From positions 1,568,001 through 1,632,000 of the forward strand of contig OZ244744.1 in NCBI GenBank assembly GCA_965219455.1: a stretch of DNA of 64,000 nucleotides, read 5' to 3'. Made by a program: the position numbers and the translations under genes. The notes under the pieces were generated by a model, which was not told where the DNA came from, searched no databases, and saw only the letters and a program-made list of their open reading frames with translations. This DNA is from Candidatus Latescibacterota bacterium (GTDB taxonomy: Bacteria > Latescibacterota > UBA2968 > GCA-2709665). This document shows positions 1,122 through 59,566 of this stretch, piece after piece (position 1 is the stretch's first letter; each line of letters starts with the position of its first letter).

Positions 1122-1694
1122 TCAGACACCCGCTTCAGGGTCGTAGATGAAATTCCTCTCGGCGTCGGCCAGCAGGGGGAGTTCCAGGTCCTTCCCTGAA
1201 AGGATCGGATCGGCAACCGGCCAATCGATGGCGATGGCCGGATCGTCCCATACAATGCCCCGGTCCAGATCCGGTGCGAATTCGGCGGTAACTTTGTACG
1301 CGAACTCGGCCTCGTCGCTCAACACGCAAAACCCGTGCGCAAAACCCTCGGGAATGAAGAACATCCTGAAATTCTCTTCAGACAGCACAACCCCTTCCCA
1401 TTGTCCGAAGGTGGGAGCGTTCCTGCGGATATCGACGGCCACGTCGAACACCTCGCCCTTTACAACCCTGACCAGCTTGGCCTGGGCCTTCGGATGCAAC
1501 TGATAGTGTAACCCCCTCAGAACGCCCCTGACCGAATGGGAATGGATATCCTGGACGAACTTTGTGGAAATTCCGTTCGCCTCGAAATCAGACTTCTTAT
1601 AGGATTCCATCAGAAAACCGCGACTGTCTTTGAAAACCCGGGGCTCGACCAGGATGAGTTCGGGAATTCTCAGCCTTTGAAACCGGAATGGCAT
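1122..1694 (-). CDS. rfbC: dTDP-4-dehydrorhamnose 3,5-epimerase
   Basis: Motifs 'DSRGFLMESY', 'GVLRGLHYQ', 'GEVFDVAVDIR', 'IPEGFAHGF'. Start taken at ATG 1694 (MPFRFQR). Confidence 0.95.
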   Translation of the reverse strand: MPFRFQRLRIPELILVEPRVFKDSRGFLMESYKKSDFEANGISTKFVQDIHSHSVRGVLRGLHYQLHPKAQAKLVRVVKGEVFDVAVDIRRNAPTFGQWEGVVLSEENFRMFFIPEGFAHGFCVLSDEAEFAYKVTAEFAPDLDRGIVWDDPAIAIDWPVADPILSGKDLELPLLADAERNFIYDPEAGV

Positions 1695-1733
1695 CCAACT
1701 TCCTTTCCCGGAGAAATAGACGCGCATTTCGGA

Positions 1734-2768
1734 TCAGGAGTGCCGGGACGACACCTGCGTCCAGCCTTCCTCGTTCACGTCGATCCGCTTCAGGAGGGGT
1801 TCCCACCAGGCGCGATTGTCGGCGTACCAGAGTACCGTTTCTTTGAACCCGAGTTCGAAAGAAATCTCCGGGCGCCATCCGAGTCGGGTACGTAGCTTGT
1901 TCGAGTCCAGAAGGTACCTGCGGTCGTGTCCGGGGCGGTCCGGAACGTAGGACTTGTATGACGCGTCAAACCCGAGTACATTCAGAATCGTGTCTGCAAT
2001 CGTTTCGACGTCCACCTCAACGCCGCTGCCGACATTGTAGGTCTCTCCGACCCGGCCTTGTTTCAGGATCAGGTCGATGGCCCTGCAGTGGTCCAACACA
2101 TGGAGCCACTCCCGTTTGTTCCGGCTGCTCTTGTAGAGCGTCATCTTCTTATGATCCAGAACCTTAGTGACAAAAAGAGGAACCACCTTTTCCGGGAACT
2201 GGTAGGGTCCGTGGTTGTTCGCACAATTGGAAATCGTGACCGGCAGCCCGAATGTCTGATGGTACGCCCGGACCGCCAGGTCGGCCGCCGCTTTGGATGC
2301 GTTGTAGGGCGTACGTGGCTGATAGGGGTCGGTTTCCGAAAAGCTTGCCTCCGAATCGAGCGGCAGGTCCCCGTAGACCTCACAGGTTGAAATATGGTGA
2401 AACCTGGGCACTCCGGCGTCGTGCGCCGCCCGGAGCAGGCGCTGTGTCCCCAGCACGTTCGTCTCGTAGAAAACGTCCGGATTCACGACCGCACGACTGT
2501 TGTGGGACTCGGCGGCGAAGTTCACGATACAATCCGGCCGGTCCCGCTCGAAAAGATCTCGAGTCAACTCATAGTTGCCGATATCTCCTTGAACGAACTC
2601 ATACCTGCCGGGATATGTTTCCGCCACGTCGGAAAGGTTATCGAGGTTTCCCGCATACGTGAGCAAATCGTAGTTTACAACTCTGTCATCCGGATATTTG
2701 GACAACCAGTATCGAACAAAGTTCGAGCCGATAAACCCAGCGCCACCGGTCACAAAAATCTCGGCCAT
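1734..2768 (-). CDS. rfbB: dTDP-glucose 4,6-dehydratase
   Basis: Motifs 'VTGGAGFIGSNF', 'LTYAGNLDNL', 'NFAAESH', 'HISTCEVYG', 'PYNASKA', 'DRPGHDRRY'. Confidence 0.95.
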   Translation of the reverse strand: MAEIFVTGGAGFIGSNFVRYWLSKYPDDRVVNYDLLTYAGNLDNLSDVAETYPGRYEFVQGDIGNYELTRDLFERDRPDCIVNFAAESHNSRAVVNPDVFYETNVLGTQRLLRAAHDAGVPRFHHISTCEVYGDLPLDSEASFSETDPYQPRTPYNASKAAADLAVRAYHQTFGLPVTISNCANNHGPYQFPEKVVPLFVTKVLDHKKMTLYKSSRNKREWLHVLDHCRAIDLILKQGRVGETYNVGSGVEVDVETIADTILNVLGFDASYKSYVPDRPGHDRRYLLDSNKLRTRLGWRPEISFELGFKETVLWYADNRAWWEPLLKRIDVNEEGWTQVSSRHS

Positions 2769-2780
2769 AATGGTCCCCTA

Positions 2781-4483
2781 GCGCGGCTTCGCTTTGCTCA
2801 GCCGCAACCAAATAGGTGGTAGTCAAGAGCAGATTGTTTTTGGGTATGCAAAACGGCGTTCATCCCCTATGATGGTGGTACCCACCGCCATCAATGGAAG
2901 GAGGAACGCCGTGAAAGACTTCGTGGACCAATGTAGTGAAAAAATCACCGGAGTGGTATCCTGTTTTGATCGGGTTCTGTTCAAAGGGTACCTGCCGCTG
3001 GGATTTGGAACTGCGATGGAGCGGTTCATCAGCAATCAGGGTTTGTTGTTGAAGGACTTCAAGCGTTTTGTGATGACGCATTCCGATACGATCAAAGCCC
3101 ACGCGGAGGCGATGGCAAACAAGCACGAGCGCCCGTTCATCTATCTGCAACGCAACACCATCAGGAAAGAGGACGAAGCGCGACGGTTGGCAAAACGCGA
3201 TGGGATCACGCAAGGCCTGGTCTGTGTGTTTCGGGCCCTGGAAGGCTGCCAGAGTTTCAAGCTGGTGCCAGGGGAAGGAAGGCCTCGCCTGATCAACGCA
3301 CAACGGAAATGCCTGTGCTACTACTTCTACTGGATTGACCGGGAGTTTGGACTGATGCATATCCGCATCCAGTCCTGGTTCCCGCTGGTGGTACAGATCT
3401 GTCTCAATGGCCACGAGTTCTTGGCGCGCAAGCTCGACAAACACGGCATCGCCTATGAAAAATTGGACAACGCGTTTGTCTGGATTGCCGATGTGGACCG
3501 GGCGCAACGCTTTGCCGATCGTTTTGTGGGCAAGAATTGGCCGCGCATTCTCTCTGCGTTCGCCCGCAAGGTCAACCCCCTGCTCAACGACCTGCTTTTG
3601 GGCATGGACTACTACTGGGTCGTTGACCAGGCCGAGTTCGCCACCGACGTGATGTTCCAAAACCCCCACGCCCTGAAGGCGCTGTATGAAAACCTGCTCA
3701 GACACACGGTGCTGTGCTTCTCTCCCCAGGACATCTTGACCTTCCTGGGCCGCAAACTCCACGGCAACTTTCAGGGTGAAGTCCTCACGGACTTCAAAAA
3801 CAAACGCCACAAAGGCGCAAGAGTCAAACACCGGATGTGTGAGAACTGGATTAAAATGTACGACAAACACGGGTGCGTACTACGCGTCGAAACAGTGATC
3901 AACCATCCAAGGCAGTTCAAGGTTCGCCGCTGGGGCATACGGCGAGGACAACGCGTGATGGGCTGGTATCCCATGGCCAAAGGCGTGGCCAACCTCTACC
4001 GCTATCGGGAAATCTCGTTGACGGCCAACCAACGCTACTTTCAGGCGCTGTCCGCAGCCCCTGACGCCGCTACCGGACATCAAAGCCTCACCACACTGGC
4101 GCGGCCACGCAGGCACAAGGGACGTACCTATCGGGGCTTTAACCCCGCCGACCTTTACGACCTCGACCTGTTTACCGCTGTGTTGAAAGGCGAACACGCC
4201 CTTATGGGCTTCCGCAACCAGGACATCCGAACACACCTCTTCCAACAACCCGCATCCCTTCTGCAACGCACTCGGCACGCCAATGCCACCAGCCGCCTCC
4301 TCAAACGTCTACACGTCCGCGGCCTGATTGCAAAAATCCCACGGTCCAGACGATGGCGCGTCACACCCGCGGGGCACAAAACACTCGCCTTGTCTTTGAC
4401 CCTTTACCATCAACACCCTACCACTAAACAAGCAGCATGAATAATTATCTACGCATTTTGCGTAGAAGTCACACTGTAAGACT
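2781..4483 (+). mobile_element. Putative insertion element without terminal inverted repeats, flanked by CTA/CTA (TAG on minus strand), with hairpins near both ends
   Basis: Removing 2781-4483 and one CTA restores the minus-strand junction 'TTC TTT TAG gggaccatt ATG' (antiporter stop, RBS, rfbB start). CTA lies at 2778-2780 and 4484-4486. Hairpins at 2783-2805 (gcggct...agccgc) and 4448-4466 (tctacgca-ttt-tgcgtaga). Its single ORF is antisense to the surrounding operon. Confidence 0.8.
2911..4440 (+). CDS. Putative transposase, about 509 aa, with Rep_trans-like motifs and a C-terminal winged HTH
   Basis: GTG start at 2911 preceded by GGAGG. Very basic protein. Motifs 'QAEFATD' and 'IKMYDK....LRVETVIN'. 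The C-terminal 'SRLLKRLHVRGLIAKIPRSRRWRVT' is wHTH-like. It is the only ORF inside the insertion. Confidence 0.7.
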   Translation: MKDFVDQCSEKITGVVSCFDRVLFKGYLPLGFGTAMERFISNQGLLLKDFKRFVMTHSDTIKAHAEAMANKHERPFIYLQRNTIRKEDEARRLAKRDGITQGLVCVFRALEGCQSFKLVPGEGRPRLINAQRKCLCYYFYWIDREFGLMHIRIQSWFPLVVQICLNGHEFLARKLDKHGIAYEKLDNAFVWIADVDRAQRFADRFVGKNWPRILSAFARKVNPLLNDLLLGMDYYWVVDQAEFATDVMFQNPHALKALYENLLRHTVLCFSPQDILTFLGRKLHGNFQGEVLTDFKNKRHKGARVKHRMCENWIKMYDKHGCVLRVETVINHPRQFKVRRWGIRRGQRVMGWYPMAKGVANLYRYREISLTANQRYFQALSAAPDAATGHQSLTTLARPRRHKGRTYRGFNPADLYDLDLFTAVLKGEHALMGFRNQDIRTHLFQQPASLLQRTRHANATSRLLKRLHVRGLIAKIPRSRRWRVTPAGHKTLALSLTLYHQHPTTKQAA

Positions 4484-53539: not shown

Positions 53540-53646
53540 ATGAAGGACGGAGTGGATAAAATGTCACGGTTGTCGATTGAGCCCGGGGAGATCGAATGCG
53601 AGGTTCTGTTTGACAGGATCTGACGACCGGCAACGGGGGGCCGAAT

Positions 53647-53681
53647 TCGAGGGGACGTAAATCGAGGGGACGTAAATCGAG
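53647..53681. repeat. 15-bp tandem repeat, (tcgaggggacgtaaa)x2 plus a partial copy
   Basis: Read directly from the sequence. Confidence 0.85.
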
Positions 53682-53720
53682 AGATGGGAGATGAAGGCTT
53701 CTCTTGCAGACTAACGAGCG

Positions 53721-53749
53721 AAGCCGCCACGCAGCGCGTGGCGGCTTTT
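53721..53749. terminator. Intrinsic terminator hairpin between convergent genes
   Basis: Perfect 12-bp stem aagccgccacgc-agc-gcgtggcggctt with a short T run. It lies 9 nt after the stop of the minus-strand 53756-54034 gene. Confidence 0.75.
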
Positions 53750-53755
53750 GTATTC

Positions 53756-54034
53756 CTATTTCCCCCCTCGGGACTTTTCGAAATAGGGGCGGACGCGTAC
53801 GATGACGTCCTCATCCAGTTTGCATTGTGACACGATTTGCGTGAACTTTTCCGCCGGCAAGCCGAGTTCCTCCAGGAACTTCCGGTCGGCGGGTCAGGGG
53901 TAGATATAGTCGCCGATGTTGTTCCGCAGCATCGCCCGGGCTTTGTCCGTAATCCGCGGCAGCCAGGGGATACCGCCCATGGCAAGCGTTCGCCCGCGGG
54001 GACGGAATTCAATGGACTCGTTCATGGCATCCAT
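53756..54034 (-). CDS. DUF5069-like small protein with in-frame TGA (codon 47); candidate selenoprotein
   Basis: AAGGAG lies 8 nt before ATG 54034. The frame reads MDAMNESIEFRPRGRTLAMGGIPWLPRITDKARAMLRNNIGDYIYP-TGA-PADRKFLEELGLPAEKFTQIVSQCKLDEDVIVRVRPYFEKSRGGK-TAG. TGA occupies the Cys position of the 'YIY.CP.D..FL..LG' motif and is followed by a SECIS-like hairpin. Confidence 0.8.
53851..53893 (-). promoter_or_regulatory. Bacterial SECIS-like hairpin
   Basis: After UGA the mRNA reads c-ccgccg-a-ccg-ga-aguucc-UGGA-ggaacu-cgg-cuugc-cggcgg. The apical loop begins 19 nt after UGA and has G at position 2. Confidence 0.7.
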
Positions 54035-54121
54035 CTGGTCGGCTCCTTTCCGTATAGGGGTTGAATGTCAAAAAATACACTTAACAGCGTACGAAAGCAA
54101 ATGGATATTGCGATCAGAAGC

Positions 54122-54703
54122 TTAATCGCCTCGGCCCACGTTCTGGTAAATGGATAACGAATTGCCTCCGTAGGTCTTCCGTATGCGCAACGAAAGGTGC
54201 CGGGTGGCGGCGGGTAACTCCAGGTCTGCGAAGTGTTGAATGAGGATATGGCCCGACGGAGCAACGAGCGCGGATCCGCTCAGACGGGTGAGCATCGCGA
54301 GGGCGAACGGAACGTCGTCCAGTTGAAGTTGGTATGGCGGATCCACGTATATGACGTCAAAAAGCCGTTGTTCCGCCTCCAGCAGCGGCAGGAGTCTTTC
54401 GGCGGGCTGATTCAGCAGGCGGATCTGTTTTTCCGCCCCCCAGTCCTTCAGCAGCATTGAAATAAAGCGGTGCCTGCGACGATTCGGTTCGTTCAGCAAC
54501 ACCCGGGCGCCCCGGCTGTACGCCTCGAGACCGATCTGACCTGAACAGGAAAAGAGGTCGAGAAAGTGGAGATGGTCGAGTCTGGTACCCAGAATCGTAA
54601 ATGCGGACTCTTTGATCCTTCCCGGCGTTACGCGGGCGTTGCCGTGTTTTCTGACGTCAAAGGGAATGGTCCTGCCTTTGAGTTTGCCCGTGATGATACG
54701 CAT
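54122..54703 (-). CDS. rsmD: 16S rRNA m2G966 methyltransferase (RsmD family)
   Basis: Motifs 'MRIITGKLKGR', 'KESAF', 'FLDLFSCSGQIGLEAYSRGA', 'FDVIYVDPPY'. Confidence 0.88.
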   Translation of the reverse strand: MRIITGKLKGRTIPFDVRKHGNARVTPGRIKESAFTILGTRLDHLHFLDLFSCSGQIGLEAYSRGARVLLNEPNRRRHRFISMLLKDWGAEKQIRLLNQPAERLLPLLEAEQRLFDVIYVDPPYQLQLDDVPFALAMLTRLSGSALVAPSGHILIQHFADLELPAATRHLSLRIRKTYGGNSLSIYQNVGRGD

Positions 54704-54850
54704 GAGAACAAAAGGAGAAGTTAAAGAGCCGTTCGGCGTTGGCGCCCCGGCGACTGAATGACGCGGCACGGCGGACGCGATCGAATTCAGGACGAGGCTG
54801 AAGAAATTCAGGAGCGAATCAATCGGACGAATGCGCAGCCTGTTTCCGCG

Positions 54851-57847
54851 TCAATACCCCTCCAGCCGGCTCAGGTCGGCAATGCCGTCCGCAAGTGAGG
54901 CGATACGCTGAACCAGAGCAAGACGGGCCCCGCGAAGCACAGGATCTTCGTCCATTACCAGGACCTCCTCGAAGAAGCTGTTAATGGGGCCGCGCAGGTC
55001 GGCCAGCACATTTTCCAGGGTATCGATCTTATCTTCGGAACGGTCCATCGTGCAGCGGGCGTCCCTCCAATTCTGATGTAATCTACGTGAGGAAGGGGTT
55101 GGATCCGCGTCCGGATTCAATGGATGGATTTCATCGAGGTTCCGTACAATACGCTTGCACCGCGCGTATGCATGAAGCCTTTCCGTCCAGTTTTCCGAAC
55201 GAACCATCTGATCGAGGCCTTCCACAATGGTGCGGAGCCCGAATGGGTCGTCGCATCCACCGGCAAGGGCGGCCTCGACCACGTCGTGGCGAAAACCCTC
55301 CTCTTTCAGTTGTACGCCCAGACGGCGCAGGATGAACGTATAAGCGTCGATCAATCGATCGGCATCGATTCGGATAGGCAGCTCCGTTGCCGCGGCCTCC
55401 AGGCCTTTCTTCAGGGAGAAGTGACAGCGTTTCCCGATAAGCAGTGCCAGAAGGCCCAGCGCGTCTCGACGCAGCCCATAGGGGTCGGCGGTCGACCGGG
55501 GCTTGATTCCAGCGCAGAACAGCCCGGCCAGGCTGTCCAGCCGGTCGGCTACCGAGACCGCAAATCCGGATTCGCTTGCCGGCAGCATATCGCCGGGAAA
55601 CCGGGGAAGGTAGTGTTCCTGGATGGCCATAGCCACTGCGTCGGTCTCCTTGGACATCAAGGCGTAGTAGCGGCCCATCACGCCCTGAAGGGTCGTCATC
55701 TCGACGACCATACCGGTGGCCAGATCCGCTTTGCTAAGCCGGGCCGCTCTTTTCGCTGTTTTCGTACCGCCTTCCGTCAAACCCAGATCGGGGGCGACCA
55801 CGGTGAGCAGTCGCTCGATTCGCTCGCTCTTGTCCCTAACGGATCCCAGTTCGTCCTGGTAGGTGAGCGTATCCAACCTCGGCAGGTAGGCTTCCAGGGG
55901 CTTTCGGCCATCTTCCCGGTAGAAGAAGGCGGCGTCTGCATATCTGGCGCGAACGACATTCTCGTTCCCGCGAATGACGGGGCCTGGATCGGCCGGCCGG
56001 CCATTGGAAACGGCCACGAAATAGGGCAGCAGCAGGCCTGTCTGCGGGTGTACTACGGGGAAGTAGCGCTGGTATTTCTTGAGTACGGTGACCAGAACTT
56101 CCTGCGGTAGTTCAAGATGGACTTCATCGAAACCGCCGCGCAACGCGAAGGGCGCTTCGACCAGATCGGTAACTTCGTCCAGCAGATCCGGATCTTCCTG
56201 TACGCTACCGCCCACCACCCGAGCCTGTTCGAGAACCTGTTTCCAGATGGTTTCTCTTCGCCGATCGCGGTTGACGATCAGACCGCGTTCCTCCATTTGT
56301 AGATGATAGGTGTCGGCGGATTCCAGCTGGACGGGCGGAGCACCCTCGGGCCTCGATCCATGGCTGGTACGTCCACTCCGGATCCGGGCGAAGGGGAACG
56401 GGATAATCTGGTTTCCAAAAAGGGCGACAATCCAGCGGAGAGGACGGGGATACGCGAAACCGTCGGAGTCCCAGCGCATGGTTTTCGGGAAGTTCAAGCC
56501 CGCGATCAGTTCGGGAAGGAGTTTCGTCAGGATTTCCTGTGTTTCGAGTCCGGACTCGTGGCGCCGGGCGTAGACGTATTCAATGCCCTTGTCGTCTTTC
56601 CTGTGTTCCACTGAACCTGGAGAGACGCCCTGACCGCGACAGAATCCTTCAAGGGCGCGTGTGGGTTTTCCCTCGCCGTCGTAGGCGGCCTTGACGGCCG
56701 GTCCGCGCACTTCGCGTTCCCGGTCCGTCTGCCGGCCCTCGAGGTTCCGGACGCTGGCGACAAGCCGTCTGGGTGTACCCGTTATTTCGACGCCGTCATA
56801 TCCGAGCCTCTGCTCTCGAAGAAGCTCGGGCAGGCGACTCTCGAGCTGTTCGATGCCCGACCGCACGTCGTGGGGCGGAAGTTCTTCGGATCCGATCTCC
56901 AGAAGGAGGTCGGCCCGATCGCAGGATTTAAAGTCCCGTCCAGGTTCCGGGGCAGCTGCGTCCCCGGTTTTCCTGATCAGGGGGTGGCCGGACGCCTCAC
57001 GCTGTCTGACAAAGCGTTCGGCGACCTGTCTGGCGAGATCGCGGATCTGCGCGAAGTACCGCGCACGTTCGGTAACGCCTATGGCCCCCCGTGTGTCCAG
57101 CAGGTTGAAGGTGTGGGAGCACCGCAACACGTAGTCATGGGCGGGAATAACGAGATCGCGGTCTATGGCGGCTCCGGCTTCTTCGAGAAAGAGATTGAAC
57201 ATGGTCTGCAGGCGCTTGACGTTTGCGTAGTAAAACTCGTAATTGCAATACTCCACTTCCTGCTGCCTGAGAATGTCGCCGTAGGTGACCTGCTCATTCC
57301 AGCGTAGCTGCCAGACTTCGCGCACATCCTGAACATACATGGCAATTCGTTCCATGCCGTAGGTGATTTCCACGGGAACGGGGTCGAGCGGCAGGCCTCC
57401 AGCCTGCTGGAAGTAGGTGAACTGGGTGATTTCCAGGCCATCGAGCCAGACCTCCCAGCCCAGGCCCCACGCGCCCAGCGCGGGCGATTCCCAGTTGTCT
57501 TCCACGAAACGGATGTCGTGCTGCCGGCGATTCAGACCCAACGCTTCCAGGCTGTCCAGGTAGAGTTCCTGGGGGTTGCCCGGCTCGGGTTTGAGAACAA
57601 CCTGGTACTGCGTGTGCATTTGCATCCGGTTCGGGTTCTCGCCGAACCGGCCGTCGTCGGGGCGGAAGCTGGGTTCAACGTAGGCTACGTTCCAGGGCTC
57701 GGGTCCCAGCACGCGAAGCGCGGTGCTCGGGTTCAGCGTACCCGCGCCCACCTTTTCGCTAAGCGGCTGCCAGATGATACACCCGTTATCCGCCCAGAAT
57801 CGTTCAAGACGAAGAATGAGTTCCTGGAAGGTAGATGTGGCGTTCAC
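54851..57847 (-). CDS. glyQS: Glycine-tRNA ligase, fused alpha and beta subunits
   Basis: Alpha part: 'TFQELILRL', 'GAGT', '[11 protein letters not shown]', '[21 protein letters not shown]', 'EITYG'. Beta part: '[11 protein letters not shown]', 'GTPRRL', 'FPKTMRW', 'KADL', 'DPYGLRR'. Confidence 0.95.
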
Positions 57848-57954: not shown

Positions 57955-59157
57955 TTAGCCGGCATCGGAAAGCCTCTTGATGGGCGTCCGGGAAACTCTG
58001 GATTTTACGTTCTTTTGAATCTGCTTGATAGACCGTTCCACGTTCCGGACCTTTTTTCTGCTGTCGTGGACGGCAACCGTAAGGTCCATTCGGCGGGTCT
58101 GGCCGGGGTCGAGCCTGGCCACGCGGCCCTGTTTGCGCTCGAACGGCTTGGGGTTGGGGTAGTTGGTAGCGGGTTCCAGGCCGGTGACGTATCCGTCTTC
58201 GGTTGCCGCCGTGTTTTTCCAGAGCGTAAAACAGGGCAACTGGTTGAGCGAACAGTGCAAGCTGGACCCCAGGTTTCCTTTGGCGTTCTTGAGCAGGACC
58301 GCCGTTTGCCCGCTTCCCCTCTTTCCGGCCAGTTCGTAAAAAAAGACCTGTTCCACAAAACCGGGTTCCGGCGCCTCGAATCTGTTATGGGCTTCCGCAC
58401 CCTCCTGCGCGCGGGTATCCCTGGGTGAAACGGATTTGAAGGGTGCAACCAGAGTGCTGCCACCTTCCAGAAACGGAGAGCCATAGTTGCAGTGATATAG
58501 CAGCTGCATTTCCGCGGGCTTTTGATTGAGGTTGCTAACACGATCCGAAATATTGAAGCTGTTGGCGCCGGGTTCCGTGGAGATAAAGGTGGTCAATCGC
58601 AGCGCGGGTCCGAACATCATGGTTTCGTCGACAACTCCCATCACGGTGATGCGATGCGGTGGCGCGAGGTCGATGCGGACTTCGACATGCCTCGCGGGAA
58701 TATTGGCGATCTTTCCATGAAGCGGGAGAAAAACCGCGGCCTCATTGCCGTTGTTGTCGATCACCACGTCGTTCGTCGGCGCGCCATTGCTCTCCAGACC
58801 GCAGCGAACGATCCATTCGTTGAAGCCCTTAAGCCAGCCGAGCCCACCCCGATCGTTGGCGTCTACATACGCCGGATGAACCAGGTCGCGGACCGGCGAT
58901 TCCCAGCCGACCGGAATATCCCCGTAGACGCCTTTCCAGATCCCCATGCCGCGGGTCGGCACAATGGAGAAGGAGAAGGCGCCGTTGTCCACTTCAATGA
59001 GGTCGATGCCCGCCTGGAGGCCGCCCTGAAGGGTTTTCTTTTTCACGCTCCACCCACGTCCGGTCCCCAGGGTCAGGGTTTCCTCATCTACACGCCAGGA
59101 TTCGGCCCAGAGCGCCCGTTCCACGTCGGTGAGCACGTGACGAAACATGCCGCCCAT
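57955..59157 (-). CDS. Aldose 1-epimerase-like protein (DUF4432 family)
   Basis: Motifs 'VPTRGMGIW', 'GWESPV', 'RCGL', 'LHGKIAN', 'LLYHCNYG', 'YVTGLEPAT'. Start at ATG 59157 after GGAG. Confidence 0.85.
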
Positions 59158-59566
59158 GTAGAACTCCTTGTATAATAGGAGGTTGTAATACGAAATTTGC
59201 TTCAGAATAAGAAGCGGAAATATACTGTACACCCGGCAGCGTGTCAATGGAAGAAGCCCCACGATTCCCATGAAGGAACTGCCGGCAGAAGCGCTTTCCG
59301 TTTTGACGCGCACACCACTCCGCGTTCCGCGTATAAGAACGCCGGGCAGGCGCGGTCTCTGCTTTGCGGAAGATATCGTCGACAGGTCTCGATGAATCTG
59401 TTCGGCAGCCCGGGTGGTCCGCGGGTTCCCGGCTGGCCGCAGTACGACTGTGGTCGATCTTCGGCTCGCCGATGTCCGTCGATTTTCTTGTACGCTTGAC
59501 AATCCGAGCATTGGTCTTTAGTATGGAGTCCGTGTGCATTGTGGTTGAACGGAGAAAGGAGCGGAC

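Follow-up and report, generated by a model that had tools for sequence, protein, structure and literature searches.

A probable selenoprotein gene of the DUF5069 family, with a conserved hairpin after its in-frame UGA, in Candidatus Latescibacterota

The recoding of UGA to selenocysteine (Sec) through a selenocysteine insertion sequence (SECIS) and SelB is a known bacterial mechanism, and the fdhF gene of E. coli is the model case of an intragenic SECIS. The majority class of selenoproteins is formed by thiol/selenol oxidoreductases with the thioredoxin fold. A review of May 2026 (PMC13188914) lists 119 families or subfamilies in its Table 1, each with a domain ID; in its passages on SECIS elements, the bacterial ones are described as generally dissimilar in sequence to each other. 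The window analysed here is a stretch of 64,000 nt from a Candidatus Latescibacterota genome (assembly GCA_965219455.1, contig OZ244744.1, positions 1,568,001 to 1,632,000). Coordinates without a prefix are window positions; G000 is the own genome, labels of the type G001-G060 denote related genomes, and L-numbers denote loci. The gene at 54034..53756 on the minus strand, which belongs to the Pfam family DUF5069 (PF16798), is very probably a real selenoprotein gene with its UGA codon 47 decoded as Sec, as judged from comparative sequence analysis. The locus carries the signature of recoding, namely Sec/Cys pairs, a conserved hairpin, the Sec machinery and purifying selection downstream of the UGA. 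The PDB entry 3OMD (Leptospirillum rubarum, unknown function) resembles the window protein over residues 12-89 (E = 1.4e-11) and has a Cys, within YNCPLD, at the Sec column; it is a protein of 145 residues with Cys, whereas the window protein has 92 residues with Sec.

The coding sequence (CDS; 53756-54034, minus strand) starts with the ATG at 54034-54032 and continues through 46 codons, the in-frame TGA (codon 47, 53894-53896), 45 further codons and the TAG at 53758-53756. Reading frame, Pfam match and orthologs together define the product, which runs from M1 to K92; the assignment of codon 47 to Sec is based on the TGA/Cys column of the orthologs. A Shine-Dalgarno sequence AAGGAG, read from the sequence, lies 8 nt 5' of the ATG (54043-54048, minus strand), and gaaaggag stands at the identical distance from the start codon in 15 of 15 sequences of the genus (the own one and 14 others). 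When the sequence was re-read, the AAGGAG, the ATG, the two runs of 46 and 45 codons, the TGA and the TAG described in the initial annotation were all recovered. The read-through protein matches DUF5069 with 53.3 bits (gathering threshold 27; E = 4.1e-14), and the match spans the TGA, aligning residues 12-82 with profile positions 4-74 of 133. Because only these profile positions are matched, the window protein is a short DUF5069 form without the C-terminal part. No NCBIfam model hit the read-through protein at E <= 1.

The read-through protein was used to search 61 genomes, i.e. the own genome and 60 relatives from genus to class level. Orthologs with 42-99% identity were found in 53 of them, and all 53 were read in frame. 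The codon-47 column holds TGA in 50 of the 53 orthologs, and all 50 TGA forms share the motif (D/E)-Y-(V/I)-(Y/F)-P-U-(P/G/S)-A-D; G022, G034 and G059 have TGC or TGT in this column instead. Among named genome records, 168 relatives were found and 80 loci were kept, 67 with TGA and 13 with Cys. The labels of these records extend beyond Candidatus Latescibacterota, the clade of the window, to Poribacteria, Gemmatimonadota and Opitutales; of the 28 loci with a Poribacteria label, 25 carry TGA, as do three with a Gemmatimonadota label. After removal of duplicates, the 133 loci (53 + 80) yielded 90 distinct gene cores, 76 with Sec (TGA) and 14 with Cys at one column, which stem from metagenome-assembled genomes labelled Latescibacterota, Poribacteria, Gemmatimonadota and Verrucomicrobiota. 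The near-full-length metagenome homologs with Cys at the column read YPCPAD without exception (19/19), and in an alignment of the wider family (A2, 90 rows) Cys occupies the column in 80 rows, including the query written with C for U. Both kinds of homolog foreseen in the initial annotation were found: Cys forms aligned at the UGA (14 cores, 19 metagenome forms and 3OMD) and TGA at the same column in other genomes. The DUF5069 motif that it had given agrees with the consensus of alignment A2.

The window is part of a single 5.84-Mb contig (G000:C1), and all four components of the Sec machinery proposed for confirmation were found in the genome above curated cut-offs. The selA gene (562 bits), selB (366.6 bits) and the tRNA-Sec gene selC (73.6 bits) are clustered at G000:C1:4374106-4377628, and selD (359.8 bits), with one in-frame TGA, lies on the same contig. 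As a separate observation, this selD (G000:C1:3407174-3408097, minus strand; L015) is a selenoprotein gene itself, with a hairpin AGUCC[GGUC]GGACU after its UGA; the loop GGUC differs from the loop UGGA of the DUF5069 gene. The search for selA succeeded in 57 of the 61 genomes; of the 50 that have a Sec form, 49 gave a selA match, the exception (G018) being 80% complete. In the genus g14, selA was found in neither of two genomes, and the ortholog of this genus (G059) has Cys; the orthologs of G022 and G034 have Cys although selA is present.

These data bear on the possibility that the TGA is read as Trp, Gly or Cys, either by a changed code or by hairpin-stimulated near-cognate read-through, with no selenium involved. 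P0009, a public gene call, shows W at the Sec column, and read-through can be promoted by a stable hairpin that follows a stop codon. However, the W in P0009 reflects the code choice of the gene caller, and TGA is the commonest stop in the window, where it ends 28 of the 53 open reading frames (ORFs) of at least 250 aa, including the Pfam-verified glyQS, just as the initial annotation had stated for the other genes; moreover, it is the true stop in 7 orthologs of the DUF5069 gene. The homologs carry Cys at the column rather than Trp or Gly, the Sec machinery is complete, the hairpin fits the bacterial SECIS model described below, and the genus without detected selA is one that has the Cys ortholog. 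The insertion of a standard amino acid is therefore improbable.

Folding of the 65-nt segment 53899-53835 with RNAfold gave the stems ccgccg/cggcgg, ccg/cgg and aguucc/ggaacu, with the UGGA loop 19 nt past the UGA and an energy of -20.6 kcal/mol; this minimum-energy structure is identical to the three-stem structure drawn in the initial annotation. The whole SECIS-like structure, with its two lower stems, extends over 53851-53892 (minus strand). The apical stem-loop AGUUCC[UGGA]GGAACU, predicted by both RNAfold and RNAalifold, occupies 53865-53880 on the same strand, with the loop at 53871-53874. The bacterial SECIS (bSECIS) model, as given in the legend of Fig. 2 of PMC13188914, has a loop of 3-9 nt, an upper stem of 4-16 bp, G in the first two loop positions, a spacing of 16-37 nt between UGA and loop, and an energy of -7.5 kcal/mol or lower. 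The hairpin of the DUF5069 gene agrees with the model throughout (4-nt loop, 6-bp upper stem, G at loop position 2, 19-nt spacing and -20.6 kcal/mol). The upper stem reaches 7 bp in some lineages, and hairpin-region energies in the orthologs range from -10 to -22 kcal/mol. Rfam is not known to include a general model of bacterial SECIS elements, and the fact that the window gave no matches at the Rfam gathering thresholds over its full length has no bearing either way.

The structure was compared over an alignment of 54 distinct sequences, with 15 Poribacteria loci left out. RNAalifold predicted the same six apical pairs independently, the ortholog hairpin has the form (A/G)GUUCC[UGGA]GGAACU, and the loop UGGA is invariant in 54 of 54 sequences. 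Next to the invariant core, pair 21-34 is GC in 48 sequences, CG in 5 and AU in 1, with none broken; pair 20-35 is AU in 40, GU in 10, UA in 2 and GC in 1, with one broken. The covariation score was 0.160 vs 0.062 in shuffles, none of 500 shuffles scored as high, and sliding the 3' partners by 1-3 columns lowered the score to 0.079 or less. In the named structure, 92.1% of the cells are paired. In two loci (L173 and L186), an insertion of one codon (3 nt) shifts the hairpin intact to 22 nt past the UGA. The swaps between GC, CG and AU pairs are compensatory changes of the kind that had been predicted for a conserved hairpin. The lower stems are in different registers across lineages, and the comparison therefore supports the apical part only.

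The codons of the apical hairpin are also frozen at the synonymous level. In the set of related genomes, codons +6 to +9 after the UGA read TTC CTG GAG GAA in 50 of 50 Sec forms, whereas all 19 other invariant columns with a degenerate amino acid use at least two codons (for example, Phe +17 is TTC in 25 and TTT in 25). The synonymous difference (pS) is 0 in codons +6 to +9 vs 0.35 (genus) to 0.65 (all 50) elsewhere. It might be argued that the conserved UUCCUGGAGGAA owes its constancy to a constraint on F-L-E-E at the level of protein or codon usage and not to RNA structure, and F and L are indeed common there in Cys forms too. However, positions 55-56 vary freely in the wider family (position 55 is E in 24, A in 14, D in 12 and R in 12; position 56 is F in 27, E in 14, R in 10 and A in 8), and FLEE in the Sec forms is therefore attributed to RNA rather than protein constraint. 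The Cys forms read FLEK, FLER, FLQK, FLDE or FLDQ; the synonymous freezing is confined to these four codons and to the Sec forms; and the adjacent codons change their amino acid (Lys to Arg and Leu to Val, from which the C-G variant arises) yet keep the pairing. A constraint acting on F-L-E-E alone is very improbable.

The hairpin is kept in all 76 Sec cores, of which 75 match UUCCUGGAGG(A/G)A; in the remaining one (L176) a single base differs and a U.G pair is retained. Among the 14 Cys cores, the 12-nt core is lost in 13; in the remaining one (L083) the G-C pair that flanks it is gone. Two Cys forms are nested in an otherwise Sec-bearing genus, L082 with GAG changed to GAA and L083 with AAG changed to AAA, each change breaking a pair. 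Decay of the hairpin in these two loci would be expected if selection on it relaxed once Sec had been replaced by Cys.

The ratio of nonsynonymous to synonymous differences (pN/pS) in the genus is 0.03 upstream of the TGA and 0.19 downstream; the codons past the UGA are under purifying selection, which indicates that the downstream half is translated. Two RNA-Seq (metatranscriptome) libraries of one study, labelled sponge metagenome, hold contigs that cover 53767-54027 and 53786-54035 with no differences and bridge the TGA. Two further studies provided DNA contigs that span the full stretch with 9 and 27 differences, none of them at 53894-53896. The TGC or TGT in reads that the initial annotation had named as a refutation does not appear, and the TGA is unchanged in the contigs of these four runs from three studies. 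The RNA contigs are a hint of expression and no proof, because RNA libraries can hold DNA. In all four runs, a second contig from another organism matches the 52 nt at 53866-53917 (UGA and SECIS) with 6 differences, which shows that this segment is conserved among co-occurring relatives. A nonsense mutation or a fault of assembly at the TGA, leaving a pseudogene or a truncated product of 46 residues, would agree with gene callers cutting at the TGA (4 of 25 protein-database homologs are half-proteins whose alignment to the query stops immediately ahead of the UGA column, and 9 cluster representatives stop exactly at query residue 46) and with the ORF list, which splits the gene there, but the TGA at the same column in 76 distinct cores under several phylum labels, its invariance in the contigs and the low downstream pN/pS, where relaxed selection had been considered, make this the most remote of the alternatives.

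A tree was reconstructed from 75 distinct proteins over 74 alignment columns, with the Sec/Cys column masked. It splits a Poribacteria clade from a clade of Latescibacterota and others, and Sec forms occur in both. The tree requires 6 Sec/Cys changes, at least 3 of which are forced by well-supported branches; many forks are unresolved because the alignment has only 74 columns.

The AlphaFold2 model of the protein, computed from the 90-row alignment, has a mean predicted local distance difference test (pLDDT) score of 89.4 and shows a pair of short strands along with four helices, which span residues 25-36, 48-57, 61-70 and 74-89. In this predicted model, Sec47 stands between Pro46 and Pro48, directly before the second helix. 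A Foldseek search of the PDB gave 3OMD as the sole hit with E <= 0.001 (E = 1.2e-4, TM-score 0.80 on the query), the rest being no better than E = 2; because only 3OMD was found, the fold is regarded as an orphan and not as thioredoxin-like. The marks of a thioredoxin-fold oxidoreductase were looked for, and neither a second conserved Cys beside the Sec column nor a similar fold was seen. Residues D30, K31 and D50 are invariant in the wider family, and P12, R13, L25, R27, R33 and D74 are nearly so. A nucleophile at a helix N-terminus together with a cluster of Arg, Lys and Asp suggests a catalytic selenol in an anion-binding site. Sec47 is most likely a catalytic nucleophile or redox centre, since it replaces a conserved Cys and lies, according to the prediction, between prolines before a helix in an orphan fold. 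The initial annotation had proposed that the Y-P-U-P site may serve in redox chemistry or metal binding.

Several points weigh against the decoding of this UGA as Sec. The support for Sec insertion, which we infer, lies at the level of sequence and not of protein. The fold energy of the single sequence is ordinary for its GC-rich composition (z = -0.72); 42 of 200 shuffles fold as well, and the single-sequence fold was therefore dropped as evidence. The RNA-library contigs could come from contaminating DNA. The related genomes are kin, so that the counts overstate independence, and the tree needs only the six changes mentioned. The Cys column is not universal in DUF5069, with Ser in 7 of the 90 rows of A2, and a tandem three-domain paralog of G060 is without Cys at that column. 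The protein has no UxxC or CxxU motif, and the Foldseek search of the PDB gave no relative of known function.

Decoding as Sec nevertheless remains the preferred reading, and its mechanism would be the following. The hairpin AGUUCC[UGGA]GGAACU within the CDS would act as a bacterial SECIS, and SelB with Sec-tRNA(Sec) would bind it and bring Sec to the ribosome, where translation would otherwise end. The machinery would be supplied by the selA-selB-tRNA(Sec) cluster and by selD, itself a selenoprotein gene.

Tandem DUF5069 proteins also occur in these genomes. The own genome has an ORF of 435 residues with three tandem DUF5069 domains (G000:C1:2958476-2959714, plus strand; L057-L059), and three tandem matches are present in all 14 other genomes of the genus. 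The tandem protein of G060, a class-level relative, has Gly, Asn and Ser in place of Cys at the Sec column. A TGA in this tandem gene (L194, G060:C1:2154300-2157000, minus strand) was considered as a further Sec codon and rejected, as it falls on a Gly column (EFL-U-IDVD) with no SECIS-like core; it is probably a nonsense mutation or sequencing error. Another DUF5069 match, in G043 (L039, G043:C1:5573015-5573323), has both a TGA and a TAA inside, the motif search there found nothing, and it is probably a decayed copy.

Downstream of the gene, a GC-rich hairpin with a 12-bp stem was found by folding at 53721-53747 (minus strand), 9 nt past the stop codon; the 59-nt stretch that contains it has an energy of -25.1 kcal/mol. 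The initial annotation had described it as a terminator hairpin. The hairpin itself is present; a consensus terminator scan called no sites, and this one was missed because there is no run of 5 T. It is likely a terminator without the canonical U tract. Just past it, at about 53640-53690 (minus strand), ctcgatttacgtcccc stands twice as a short direct repeat and is followed by a degenerate third copy.

Upstream, on the same strand, the neighbour is an RsmD-type methyltransferase gene (54122-54769, minus strand; Pfam Cons_hypoth95, E = 7.6e-31). Two genes upstream lies a fused glycyl-tRNA synthetase alpha+beta gene (glyQS; 54851-57847, minus strand), an ORF of 998 residues with tRNA-synt_2e followed by tRNA_synt_2f, which ends in TGA. 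Upstream of glyQS is the gene of a 518-residue protein (57955-59511, minus strand) with a DUF4432 match (E = 1.4e-102). In the tblastn searches, most of the Latescibacterota loci covered showed an rsmD match on the upstream side of the gene; none of the loci L157-L193 did. The RsmD-type neighbour is probably genomic context and not function; both rsmD and glyQS were set aside as functional clues, being housekeeping genes. The Poribacteria loci have pheA downstream in 23 cases and UPF0182 upstream in 17, and these neighbours were likewise rejected as clues, being housekeeping or too sparse. Three Poribacteria loci with Sec forms have, directly upstream, a gene in which glutaredoxin is fused to a pyridine nucleotide-disulphide oxidoreductase (L166:1756-2982, L169:1752-2978 and L172:1753-2982, plus strand), which is a weak hint of a redox context.

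One further family is encoded immediately ahead of the DUF5069 gene, in the same orientation, in 11 of the 37 loci L157-L193 (L157-L163, L168, L174, L175 and L180, at about 1400-3010 in each). These loci are labelled Latescibacterota, Gemmatimonadota and Opitutales and include both Sec and Cys forms; the spacing to the DUF5069 gene varies between an overlap of stop and start codons and a gap of 139 nt. The family, of about 345-375 residues, gave no hit against Pfam, NCBIfam or the PDB. A language-model Atlas places it beside clusters of APH phosphotransferases, part of its homologs have precomputed PF01636 hits, and the kinase-like residues K55, E74, D216, N221 and D242 (a Lys, a Glu, Asp-x4-Asn and a later Asp) are invariant. 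Among the 61 genomes, the short DUF5069 gene and the kinase-like gene were both found in 50, the short DUF5069 gene alone in 3 (80%, 88% and 95% complete), the kinase-like gene alone in 2, and neither in 6. The last group includes both genomes of genus g3, which belongs to a taxonomic family in which most other genomes have both genes. A complex prediction of the kinase-like family (alignment A4) with DUF5069 (alignment A5) scored 0.00 in both runs, which speaks neither for nor against pairing.

In the own genome, the kinase-like gene (G000:C1:1183201-1184133; L195) lies apart from the DUF5069 gene. Directly downstream of it is the gene of a protein of the AIR-synthase superfamily (L195:2653-3666, plus strand, equal to G000:C1:1184353-1185366), which scores below all curated cut-offs (HypE 118 bits, SelD 93.5 and ThiL 91.2) and is, by its sequence matches, classed as a PurM-like enzyme. 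Single TGA codons reported in kinase-like orthologs were considered as Sec and rejected; the translations of G009 and G004 show the natural stop, read through by the profile alignment.

The tight or overlapping gene pairs in several lineages, the joint gain and loss, and the invariant kinase residues are the grounds for considering a functional partnership of the two families, which is possible but on the whole unlikely. A more specific and somewhat more doubtful proposal is that the short DUF5069 protein might be the Sec/Cys-dependent partner of an apparently active (predicted) APH-like kinase, forming a new two-component enzyme system in which the selenol, in an Arg/Lys-rich pocket, would act on a phosphorylated intermediate or substrate. 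Such a system would be ancient, with one SECIS core carried into symbiont lineages labelled Latescibacterota, Poribacteria and Gemmatimonadota. If the kinase link were true, it would offer a first clue to the function of the two orphan families.

As Sec residues are almost always catalytic, the presence of Sec at the single conserved Cys would identify the active site of DUF5069. The family has a solved structure (3OMD), and the Sec site points to nucleophilic or redox chemistry outside the thioredoxin fold. The gene is systematically mis-annotated, since public gene calls take the TGA as the end or the beginning of the gene, or in one case as a Trp codon; the selenoproteomes of Latescibacterota and Poribacteria, all of whose records in this analysis are metagenome-assembled genomes, are therefore under-counted. 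The near-invariant SECIS core, together with Sec-to-Cys reversions with a decaying hairpin, constitutes a natural experiment on how a SECIS constrains coding sequence. Moreover, the 12-nt core might be used as a probe for further members.

DUF5069 appears to be an undescribed selenoprotein family with a known recoding mechanism, which agrees with the suggestion of the initial annotation. Table 1 of PMC13188914 has no DUF5069 entry, and PF16798 does not occur in the text of that review; its bacterial families with NCBIfam IDs cannot be DUF5069, because no NCBIfam model hits the protein. A literature search over about 8.4 million papers and preprints gave no mention of DUF5069, and among titles and openings of abstracts no relevant publication was found on selenoproteins or selenocysteine in Latescibacteria or Poribacteria. 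The nine new families named in the consulted part of the deep-Sep paper all differ from DUF5069. The 2008 GOS paper (PMC2398784) names, in the part consulted, a 'hypothetical protein GOS_A' with 2 Sec sequences and no domain; the GOS_A sequences (Dataset S2 of that paper) and the candidates from groundwater in Deng et al. 2026 (Cell Rep) lie outside the comparison.

Compared with the catalogued systems, the DUF5069 gene resembles the single-Sec, non-thioredoxin DUF families of Table 1 in PMC13188914 (DUF3179, DUF166, DUF1573, DUF1858 and DUF523), which are likewise small, of unknown function, and have Sec/Cys pairs and a SECIS. It differs from them in its Pfam family and fold, and in a motif Y-P-U-(P/G/S/A)-x-D in place of UxxC, CxxU or UGC. 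Unlike the catalogued SECIS genes, it belongs to a family outside the 119 families or subfamilies of that table; unlike typical bacterial SECIS elements, its SECIS core is near-constant across phylum labels (75 of 76 Sec cores). In its general organization, the gene is like the bacterial genes with an intragenic SECIS such as fdhF: the UGA stands at a Cys column, a 3' hairpin with a small G-containing loop lies within the CDS, and selA to selD are present in the genome.

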